Shown in pieces: positions 14,210 through 15,334 of a DNA stretch of 32,000 bases. The stretch comes from Candidatus Baldrarchaeum yapensis. Its GTDB lineage: Archaea; Asgardarchaeota; Baldrarchaeia; Baldrarchaeales; Baldrarchaeaceae. Below the pieces are notes generated by a model that saw only the letters and a list, made by a program, of their open reading frames with translations, did not search any database and was not told where the DNA came from. The stretch is taken from NCBI GenBank assembly GCA_016840465.1, contig JAEOSH010000010.1, forward strand, positions 19,544 to 51,543. Direction: 5' to 3'. The stretch's first letter is position 1; every line of letters begins with the position of its first letter. The position numbers were made by a program, and so were the translations under genes.

Positions 14210-15334
14210 ATGATTCATGAGGTCTTCATCGTACTGCGCGGGAAGGACGTTCTCGTTCATGTAGATTTCGAGGAAGCAAACCCAGCGTACAACAGAAAGT
14301 TATCAGAATCGGTAATCTCATTTTTTAACACTACATCCTTCAAATTCAAGCGCATGCTTGTCGAAGATAAGTGTGTCGTCTTCGAACAGTCGGATAAACT
14401 TGCGGTGATACTAATTGGAGACGAAACGGACGAACTATCAATCTTGGAAAAGCATGCGAAGTGGATTCTGGGGGCGTTCATCAACAAGTTCGGCACATCT
14501 TTCGAGAAGTGGAGTGGCGATATAACGGAATTTGAAAAGTTCAAGAGGATCATAGAGAGGGTTGTCACGGCTCCCAAACTGATACTGAAGATGGTATTGG
14601 TCGGGAGCCCGGGAGTCGGGAAAACCACGCTTATGAAGTTGCTTATAGGGGAAGAGCCACCTAAAGAGTATGTTCCGACAACAAAGCCGGAAAGAACTAT
14701 CCTCGGGGAATTTCTCGAACTTAAGGGATTTTATGAAATCGCAGCATGGGATCTGCCAGGCCAGATATCTTACCGCAAGTTCTGGGACACGTACCTGAAG
14801 GACAGCGATATAGTAATTTTGGTTACGGATAGCACTCCCGACGATGTTGACGACTTGCGACGGTTGCTCAAAGAGATAAAAGAGAATATAAATCGAGAAG
14901 ATTTACCGACAAAAATCATAGTGATAGCAAATAAACAAGATTTGCCCGGCGCAATGAAGCCCGAGGAGATCTCCAAAGCTATAGGAATGGAAGCACATGG
15001 TTTTGTCGCAATAGATAAGAGTTACAGACCGAAGCTGATAAACCTGATACTCTCGGCAGCGGAGGAAATAGCAGGAAAGATATTCGAAAGAACCGAAAAA
15101 AGAATCGAGGAGGCCCAAAAACTCGAGGAAATATTGGAAACCCTGCGCGAGTTCAAGCGCGATCTCATAAAGTATCTGCCAATAAACCATCCTGCATTTT
15201 TGAAAATAGATTACTGGATAAGACACCTGAAGACGCAGGGAAAAATATCTGAGAAGGAAGCAGAAAAATTACATGAAGAAATGAAGTCTCTGAGAAAGCT
15301 CGTATCAGATCGTATTAAGATCATGAGCACGTAA
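14210..15334 (+). CDS. Small GTPase of Arf/Sar/SRbeta-like type with an N-terminal longin-like domain and a C-terminal coiled-coil tail
   Basis: G1 is GSPGVGKT (aa 132-139) and G3 is WDLPGQ (180-185), followed by FWDTYLKDSDIVILVTDS. G4 is NKQD within IANKQDLPGAMKPEEISKAIGM (239-260), very close to the Arf1 string ANKQDLPNAM..EI..LGL. Residues 1-120 have a bb-a-bbb-aa pattern typical of longin domains. Residues 290-374 are helical and charged. Confidence 0.8.
   Translation: MIHEVFIVLRGKDVLVHVDFEEANPAYNRKLSESVISFFNTTSFKFKRMLVEDKCVVFEQSDKLAVILIGDETDELSILEKHAKWILGAFINKFGTSFEKWSGDITEFEKFKRIIERVVTAPKLILKMVLVGSPGVGKTTLMKLLIGEEPPKEYVPTTKPERTILGEFLELKGFYEIAAWDLPGQISYRKFWDTYLKDSDIVILVTDSTPDDVDDLRRLLKEIKENINREDLPTKIIVIANKQDLPGAMKPEEISKAIGMEAHGFVAIDKSYRPKLINLILSAAEEIAGKIFERTEKRIEEAQKLEEILETLREFKRDLIKYLPINHPAFLKIDYWIRHLKTQGKISEKEAEKLHEEMKSLRKLVSDRIKIMST

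Follow-up and report, generated by a model that had tools for sequence, protein, structure and literature searches.

A longin-fused ArfL GTPase with a rare helical tail adjoins type IV filament accessory genes in Baldrarchaeia

In a 32,000-nucleotide stretch of the genome of Candidatus Baldrarchaeum yapensis (contig JAEOSH010000010.1 of GenBank assembly GCA_016840465.1; the whole stretch is referred to as the window), an open reading frame (ORF) at 14210–15334 on the forward strand encodes a protein of 374 amino acids (aa), in which a longin domain is followed by a small GTPase (G) domain that we assign to the Asgard ArfL class and by a helical tail. The ORF starts with ATG and reaches its stop codon without internal stops, as given in a preliminary description made from the sequence alone, and the motif strings quoted there are all present. 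An identical 374-aa protein is found in NCBI, JGI, ENA and Logan assemblies. Several independent contigs show the same gene order, which excludes an assembly artefact as the source of the ORF or of its context. Alignment of ∼28 full-length homologues of 380 aa (39–42% identity) showed that all three regions of the protein are conserved. Those homologues that carry names come from Baldrarchaeota/Baldrarchaeia, and the sole annotation of one member of the cluster is 'ADP-ribosylation factor-like protein [Candidatus Baldrarchaeia archaeon]'. This is a real, conserved gene rather than a chance ORF. A local iterative search retrieved 124 homologues from across the Asgard lineages in which the G domain is preceded by a homologous N-terminal domain. 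All named homologues are Asgard (Baldr, Loki/Prometheo, Thor, Odin, Hel, Hod, Hermod and Jord/Frey), and one match labelled Thermofilum groups with Baldrarchaeota sequences.

Fold searches with the whole-chain AlphaFold2 (AF2) model returned G-domain matches only, and the longin domain (aa 1–121; 14210–14572, + strand) was modelled separately. The model of aa 1–122 had a predicted local distance difference test (pLDDT) score of 88.8 and a predicted template modelling (pTM) score of 0.82. Two AF2 models placed strands at aa 2–9 and 14–19, a helix at 25/30–41, strands at 48–51, 54–61 and 64–71, and helices at 76–94/100 and 105/106–120, which reproduces element by element the β-β-α-β-β-β-α-α order proposed earlier for aa 1–120. 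This order is the longin topology, versus α-β-β-α-β-β-β-α for roadblock domains (Tran et al. 2024), and the modelled domain has no N-terminal helix and two C-terminal helices. In agreement, the top Foldseek matches in the PDB were the sigma subunits of AP-1/AP-2 (E 1.5e-5, template modelling (TM) score ∼0.7), Sec22b (TM 0.77–0.82) and VAMP7 (TM 0.78), whereas roadblock/LAMTOR (Ragulator) proteins aligned more poorly (TM 0.45–0.55). The likeness to sigma-adaptin and Sec22 that had been noticed by eye was therefore correct, and the modelled domain is closer in fold to longin than to roadblock proteins.

In Pfam and PDB sequence searches, aa 1–122 alone gave no meaningful match. Therefore, a longin family profile was built from 20 diverse, non-redundant representatives. 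This profile matched AP-3 sigma (1.9e-5), AP-2 sigma (3.9e-5) and zeta-COP (2e-3), and more weakly the N-terminal domain of AP-2 mu (7e-3) and MON1 (0.02). Individual family members matched the Pfam models Fuz_longin_1 (7/20), Clat_adaptor_s (7/20) and Longin (4/20); the Baldrarchaeum protein itself matched none of them. Thus, aa 1–121 form a longin domain whose topology is of the sigma-adaptin/Sec22 type. In profile and fold, this domain is closest to the sigma/zeta subunits of the coats that Arf1 recruits (AP-1 and COPI). In eukaryotes, however, the longin-fold subunits and Arf are separate proteins in heterotetrameric coats, and no coat large subunits are encoded near the Baldrarchaeum gene.

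The G domain (aa 126–270; 14585–15019, + strand) carries the motifs of a small GTPase. The G1/P-loop GSPGVGKT (aa 132–139; 14603–14626) is invariant in the alignment of close homologues. In switch I, YVPT (aa 154–157; 14669–14680), Y154, P156 and T157 are invariant, and Thr157 is likely to be the G2 threonine. The G3/switch II motif WDLPGQ (aa 180–185; 14747–14764) contains the catalytic Gln185 and is invariant at W180, D181, P183, G184 and Q185; G3 ends in GQ, i.e. [WF]DxxGQ, in most members of the wider family. The spacing from Thr157 to the G3 aspartate is 24 residues (widely variable in the family, mostly 19–30 with a mode of 21), five more than in Arf1. An Arf-like segment, KFWDTYLKDSDIVILVTDS, follows at aa 190–208, and the string IANKQDLPGAMKPEEISKAIGM at aa 239–260 includes the G4 motif NKQD for guanine specificity (aa 241–244; 14930–14941), which is present in 125/125 family members. 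By its position, VAID (aa 266–269; 15005–15016; A267, I268 and D269 invariant) is the probable equivalent of G5. The G-domain hallmarks listed in the preliminary description, namely GSPGVGKT, WDLPGQ and the two longer strings, were all confirmed at these positions.

Given these motifs, the protein would be expected to bind and hydrolyse GTP and to cycle between GTP- and GDP-bound states as a conventional switch. Alternatively, it could be a nucleotide-locked scaffold, i.e. a pseudo-GTPase. Proline 134 of the P-loop stands at the position of Ras Gly12, where the family has Pro, Gly or Ser, and tail-bearing relatives from Odinarchaeia have Lys or Arg in place of the catalytic glutamine (WDMPGK, WDLPGR), with GEPNTGKT as G1. 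Both observations would suit a pseudo-GTPase. However, G1, the switch I threonine, DxxGQ and NKQD are intact and invariant in the Baldrarchaeum protein and in all of its close homologues, and we regard a locked scaffold as very unlikely.

The best Pfam model for the G domain was Arf (7e-21, 74.8 bits), well above Roc and Ras; SRPRB (28 bits, under the stronger Arf match) and Gtr1_RagA (22.7 bits) were weaker. The best PDB matches by sequence and fold were Arl1 (1.5e-16), Arf1, Arl2, Arl3 and the Asgard protein GerdArfR1. An Arf-type G domain is thus fused in cis to a longin domain, as first proposed. In published phylogenies, Asgard 'Arf-like' proteins fall into two groups, one of which, ArfR/AArf, forms the genuine sister group to eukaryotic Arf and SRbeta. 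Two of these phylogenies place the other group, ArfL, outside the clade of eukaryotic Arf/SRbeta and ArfR, near Rag and Rup2. We compared the G domain by phmmer with reference sequences classified in Table S3 of Vargova et al. ArfL references scored 81–114 bits in eight of ten cases (61 and 42 bits for the remaining two), compared with 56–65 bits for eukaryotic Arl1, 34 bits for Lokiarchaeum ArfR, ≤31 for RagGtr, ≤26 for RasL and ≤21 for MglA. A neighbour-joining (NJ) tree, crude as it is (151 columns, one ArfR reference and two eukaryotic references), gave 82% of 300 bootstraps to a clade of the ten ArfL references, the Baldrarchaeum protein, its orthologue from a sister clade within Baldrarchaeia and two other hits, apart from the ArfR/Arf, RagGtr, RasL and MglA references. 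It joined eukaryotic Arl1 in 0/300 bootstraps.

Direct links to classified proteins pointed the same way. The tree-annotated ArfL entries NVM30212.1 and NVM28342.1 share 87–91% identity with members of the homologue set, Lokiarch_05490 of Klinger et al. shares 72–74% with other members, and the Baldrarchaeum protein aligns to NVM28342.1 over both the longin and the G domain (E 1.7e-34). In line with the Asgard restriction of ArfL, the named homologues all belong to Asgard lineages. Based on the phmmer scores, the NJ clade, these identities and the two-domain alignment, we assign the G domain to the Asgard-only ArfL class and thus classify the protein as a longin-fused ArfL.

Membership of the Arf/Sar/SRbeta lineage, which had been proposed at first, was not supported, since the G domain groups with ArfL and the literature places ArfL outside Arf/SRbeta and ArfR. 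The expectation that the domain would group with that lineage rather than with ordinary MglA-like or other families held only in part: its position outside Arf/Sar/SRbeta comes close to the outcome that the preliminary description had named as counting against it, yet ArfL is no ordinary MglA-like family. A genuine member or ancestor-like relative of eukaryotic Arf/Sar/SRbeta, with the longin domain replacing the N-terminal amphipathic helix, would agree with the wide lead of Arf in Pfam over SRPRB and Gtr1_RagA, with the Arl1, Arl2, Arl3 and Arf1 matches at the top of the PDB and Foldseek searches, with the Arf-like strings WDxxGQ, RxxWxxY and NKQD, and with the longin N-termini that also occur within the AArf clade (PMC11914678). 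We consider this extremely unlikely in view of the gap between 81–114 bits for most ArfL references and 34 bits for Lokiarchaeum ArfR, the lack of a single bootstrap with Arl1, the longer G2-to-G3 spacing, and an N-terminus that is a 121-aa longin domain instead of an amphipathic helix packed against the interswitch. A further hallmark of Arf proteins, the two-residue interswitch toggle between GDP and GTP forms, would involve the β2 region, which is modelled with pLDDT <50.

Memberships of the SRbeta/SRX, Rag and MglA/MglB systems were likewise rejected on scores, motifs and the NJ tree, although each resembles the Baldrarchaeum protein in part. In SRbeta and the SRX longin domain of SRalpha, an Arf-related G domain also works with a longin fold, but these are two polypeptides, and SRbeta, a member of the Arf/ArfR clade, is anchored by a transmembrane segment; its Pfam model matches the Baldrarchaeum protein only weakly (SRPRB, 28 bits). 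The Rag/Gtr proteins (RagA-D, Gtr1/2) and Asgard RagGtr are also GTPases permanently fused to a dimerisation/docking platform of the roadblock/longin superfamily, and some longin-GTPase fusions have been filed as 'Rag family' or 'Rag-like' (Liu et al. 2020; Tran et al. 2024). The Rag platform, however, is a C-terminal roadblock, whereas the Baldrarchaeum protein has an N-terminal longin domain and an all-helical tail with no C-terminal roadblock; the Asgard RagGtr references have HKxD as G4 versus NKQD here, and Gtr1_RagA scores 22.7 versus 74.8 bits for Arf. MglA/MglB of Myxococcus and Thermus pair a Ras-superfamily GTPase with a roadblock/longin-superfamily partner and are tied to the type IV pilus machinery. 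These are separate bacterial proteins, MglB is a roadblock rather than a longin protein, and MglA belongs to a different class (≤21 bits). Among the large window ORFs that were scanned, none matched a roadblock family.

The fusion itself is not new. It was reported for Lokiarchaeum in 2016, in the work of Klinger et al. as summarised by Dey, Thattai and Baum (2016, PMC4917890), and the observation was repeated by Liu et al. (2020). In MK-D1, 26 of 74 small GTPases carry roadblock or longin domains, Arf-annotated ones included, and AF2 predicted Gtr1/Gtr2-like dimers of the fused GTPases through these domains (Tran et al. 2024). Longin N-termini have also been noted among Asgard Arf proteins (PMC11914678). 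The idea that this fusion might be undescribed was therefore not supported (reports date from 2016, 2020, 2024 and 2025), and the headline architecture answers no open question because it is already in the literature. The Baldrarchaeum protein is a new example, which extends the longin-ArfL architecture to Baldrarchaeia and carries a rare tail. Its longin-then-ArfL core is the same as in Lokiarch_05440 (KKK45957.1), Lokiarch_05490 (KKK45962.1) and NVM28342.1 of Helarchaeales, with the shared G-domain signatures GxxGVGKT, (Y/H)xPT, WDxxGQ, LVTDST, (I/V)ANKQDLPxA and VAI(D/N). It differs from other Asgard longin-ArfL proteins in an added 100-aa tail with the motif KYLPINxPxFxxIDYWI, a longer β2-β3 region, its origin in Baldrarchaeia and its position next to type IV filament accessory genes. 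Two modest leads are thus new, namely the rare, strongly conserved C-terminal domain and the conserved neighbourhood with these accessory genes.

The tail (aa 271–374; 15020–15331, + strand) was modelled by AF2 with pLDDT ∼85–89 as helices at aa 270–301, 305–319, 329–343 and 348–373. Its motif KYLPINHPAFLKIDYWI (aa 321–337; 15170–15220) is invariant and has the consensus KYLPINxPxFxxIDYWI, a Pro-rich loop that breaks the four helices. The '85-aa coiled-coil tail' of the preliminary description is thus indeed helical, but it is a conserved four-helix domain of ∼100 aa with a Pro-rich loop rather than a generic coiled coil. When 1.84 billion representative proteins were searched exhaustively with a profile, the tail was found in nine clusters only. 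These include two Baldrarchaeia groups, a short fragment and the longin-ArfL-tail protein P0144, and in another cluster the tail forms the C-terminus of an unrelated 787-aa protein. The tail looks like a small, mobile docking module.

The remaining clusters show further designs. In P0140 and P0141 (L042, 926–2323), the longin-ArfL-tail arrangement is extended by a C-terminal RING-like multi-cysteine zinc finger (zf-RING_2, weak), which would join a putative E3-type module to a small GTPase. The Odinarchaeia-type longin-ArfL-tail proteins P0142 and P0143, in which the catalytic glutamine is replaced (WDMPGK/WDLPGR), are encoded at L040 10001–11101 and L041 10001–11095 (Odinarchaeota LCB_4 genome CP091871.1). 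Both genes are divergent from a gene for an Arf/Ras-like GTPase of 177–186 aa, followed by a gene for a TackOD1-domain protein, and the Odinarchaeota pairing could be a GTPase/pseudo-GTPase pair.

In the window, the longin-ArfL gene is the last of a forward-strand operon. The first gene (9783–10742, +) encodes a conserved protein of 319 aa, for which family searches, PADLOC included, gave no family; an orthologue with 32–35% identity occupies the same position in the sister loci. The second (10763–11548, +) encodes a KaiC/ArlH-like RecA-fold protein of 261 aa without Walker A, which is 55% identical to its sister-clade orthologue. The 261-aa protein also matches the eukaryotic Elongator subunits Elp4 (PAXNEB, 4e-10), Elp5 (Iki1, 1.5e-8) and Elp6 (2e-3). 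The third (11550–14198, +) encodes an 882-aa coiled-coil protein with a C-terminal TrmB/MarR-type winged helix-turn-helix (wHTH). Its three tandem internal repeats of ∼180–200 aa, mutually 53–60% identical, were found by protein self-comparison and missed by Tandem Repeats Finder, their period exceeding 500 nt. As the sister-clade orthologue (353–438 aa) has a single repeat copy, the rod was triplicated in the lineage of the window. Between the TGA of this gene (14196–14198) and the ATG of the longin-ArfL gene lies a gap of 11 nt with a Shine–Dalgarno (SD)-like GGGGA at 14200–14204, which suggests that the two genes are co-transcribed.

Divergent from this operon, a gene at 8964–9668 (−) encodes a second KaiC-like protein (234 aa) with a degenerate Walker A. 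Because GK[ST] of Walker A is missing from both the 261-aa and the 234-aa protein, they are probably not ATPases. Next to it, an A24 prepilin/prearchaellin peptidase (Peptidase_A24 and Arc_PepC_II) is encoded at 8162–8962 (−) and has orthologues in the sister loci. Two adjacent genes at 6908–7420 (−) and 7422–7946 (−), codirectional with the peptidase and 234-aa KaiC genes, encode V4R-domain proteins (TRAPPC3/Bet3 superfamily; Pfam scores at threshold) and occupy the position that the longin-ArfL gene has in the sister clade. A defence-island reading of the locus was rejected, since PADLOC returned only compositional coiled-coil matches between the 882-aa protein and the arms of SMC-like proteins.

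The block of peptidase, 234-aa KaiC-like, 319-aa, 261-aa KaiC-like and coiled-coil genes is orthologous in the sister clade (32–55% identity). The GTPase gene adjoins it in both clades, on opposite flanks, and the sister-clade copy is convergent with the peptidase gene. There, the block runs on into a third KaiC paralogue, whose Walker A (GPSGVGKT) is intact, a second coiled-coil protein, a PilB/ArlI-like ATPase, a split PilC/ArlJ and pilin-like proteins with class III signal peptides. Judged by its genes, the sister-clade locus makes up a complete type IV filament system of archaeal type, and we infer that the equivalents of the window genes form the cytoplasmic accessory part of this pilus- or archaellum-like system. 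KaiC-family and coiled-coil proteins are recurrent companions of archaeal type IV pilus loci, at which Ras-superfamily GTPases have not been reported (PMC4858521). A scan of genome contigs found only two more Baldrarchaeia loci, both in the sister-clade arrangement; five other loci were discarded as unrelated bacterial P-loop matches. Roughly 6 kb upstream of the sister-clade longin-ArfL gene, a second Arf-like GTPase of 275 aa is encoded, which is 33% identical to aa 67–280 of the Baldrarchaeum protein. Its gene overlaps the end of a gene for a 352-aa TrmB-HTH protein, a pair (L001, 827–2709) that echoes the order of wHTH protein and GTPase in the window. Immediately after the window GTPase gene, a 141-aa protein of IS1595 type with a zinc ribbon and an HTH is encoded at 15341–15766 (−). 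This gene may mark a rearrangement, since synteny with the sister-clade filament locus breaks exactly there.

Taken together, these observations suggest a three-domain ArfL GTPase that combines a conventional switch, a longin platform and a docking tail and acts with partners encoded by its neighbours, a reading to which we give a probability of about 60%. By analogy with the C-terminal roadblock of Rag/Gtr, with MglB, TRAPP and Mon1-Ccz1, and with the AF2 dimers predicted for MK-D1 GTPases (Tran et al. 2024), the fused longin domain would be a built-in platform. Another longin or roadblock domain may dock on it, giving homo- or heterodimers, and/or it may bring a partner up to the switch face. 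Complex assembly, and not the insertion of an amphipathic helix into a membrane as in true Arfs, would then follow the nucleotide state of the G domain, with the tail as a further docking module. In Baldrarchaeia, the most likely partners would be the products of the conserved neighbouring genes, i.e. the two degenerate KaiC/ArlH-like proteins, the 319-aa protein and the coiled-coil wHTH protein. Such concrete, testable candidate partners would be useful when choosing an ArfL protein for biochemistry.

The longin domain could, alternatively, fold back on the protein's own switch I/II as an effector mimic, guanine nucleotide exchange factor or GTPase-activating protein, and so make the auto-regulated switch suggested in the preliminary description, as modelled on SRX bound to SRbeta-GTP and on the longin pairs of Mon1-Ccz1 and TRAPP on Rabs. 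Only about five residues (aa 122–125) separate the α3 helix of the longin domain from β1 of the G domain, and this short linker, together with a pTM of 0.74 for the full-length AF2 model, suggests a compact protein, in keeping with either reading. The α2-α3 loop motif of the longin domain, KYGxxLxxWxGxxxxFxxF, is conserved across the wider family and could be an interface, and in known systems longin and roadblock domains contact the switch regions of GTPases (literature in Tran et al. 2024). However, known GTPase-binding platforms are longin/roadblock dimers rather than single domains, and the switch I/β2 region (aa 150–174; 14657–14731) has the lowest confidence of the whole model (pLDDT <50). 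We regard auto-regulation as unlikely.

The low confidence of this region also weighs on the three-domain reading, as do the coarseness of the NJ tree and several features of the neighbourhood. The window has no PilB, PilC or pilin genes. The linkage to type IV filament genes is seen only in Baldrarchaeia, where the genomes are fairly closely related and show just two arrangements; it could be residual synteny. More distant tail-bearing relatives lie in unrelated gene contexts. The GTPase may thus have nothing to do with the filament genes, its adjacency being inherited synteny or chance, and serve some other Asgard-wide ArfL role, e.g. marking membrane regions or protrusions. This would fit the absence of PilB, PilC and pilin genes, the homologue P0032, whose gene lies beside ribosomal protein genes, the Odinarchaeia homologues beside the small GTPase and TackOD1 pair, and the finding that MK-D1 GTPase genes generally lie outside operons of presumed regulators (Tran et al. 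2024). On the other hand, the adjacency has outlasted a rearrangement that switched the flank of the gene while the protein diverged to 41% identity, and in the window the gene follows the coiled-coil gene by 11 nt with its own SD-like site. We consider a role unrelated to the filament genes rather unlikely.

A bolder reading is that the Baldrarchaeia longin-ArfL-tail GTPase regulates an archaeal type IV filament machine according to its nucleotide state, acting through its degenerate KaiC/ArlH-like and coiled-coil wHTH neighbours. We hold this to be quite unlikely. If true, the protein would do in one archaeal polypeptide what MglA/MglB do in controlling bacterial type IV pili and would provide the first functional assignment for any ArfL protein. 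It would also link an Asgard GTPase of the 'eukaryotic-signature' kind with a classical surface machine of prokaryotes instead of with membrane trafficking, whereas Asgard small GTPases are usually discussed solely in terms of eukaryote-like trafficking.

Elsewhere in the window, several genes drew attention. A 645-aa protein encoded at 2187–4124 (+) has a C-terminal DUF11 and matches the C-terminal domain of adaptor-complex medium (mu) subunits weakly, below threshold (Adap_comp_sub, 3.9e-4). Families with a eukaryotic flavour are represented by a VTT/DedA-type membrane protein (20373–21095, +) and a TANGO2-family protein (27603–28442, +). Finally, a gene at 22226–23734 (+) encodes a pyridoxal phosphate-dependent (PALP) enzyme with a C-terminal PadR winged helix and a weak N-terminal LysW-like zinc ribbon, and adjoins pdxS/pdxT-like (SOR_SNZ, SNO) genes.

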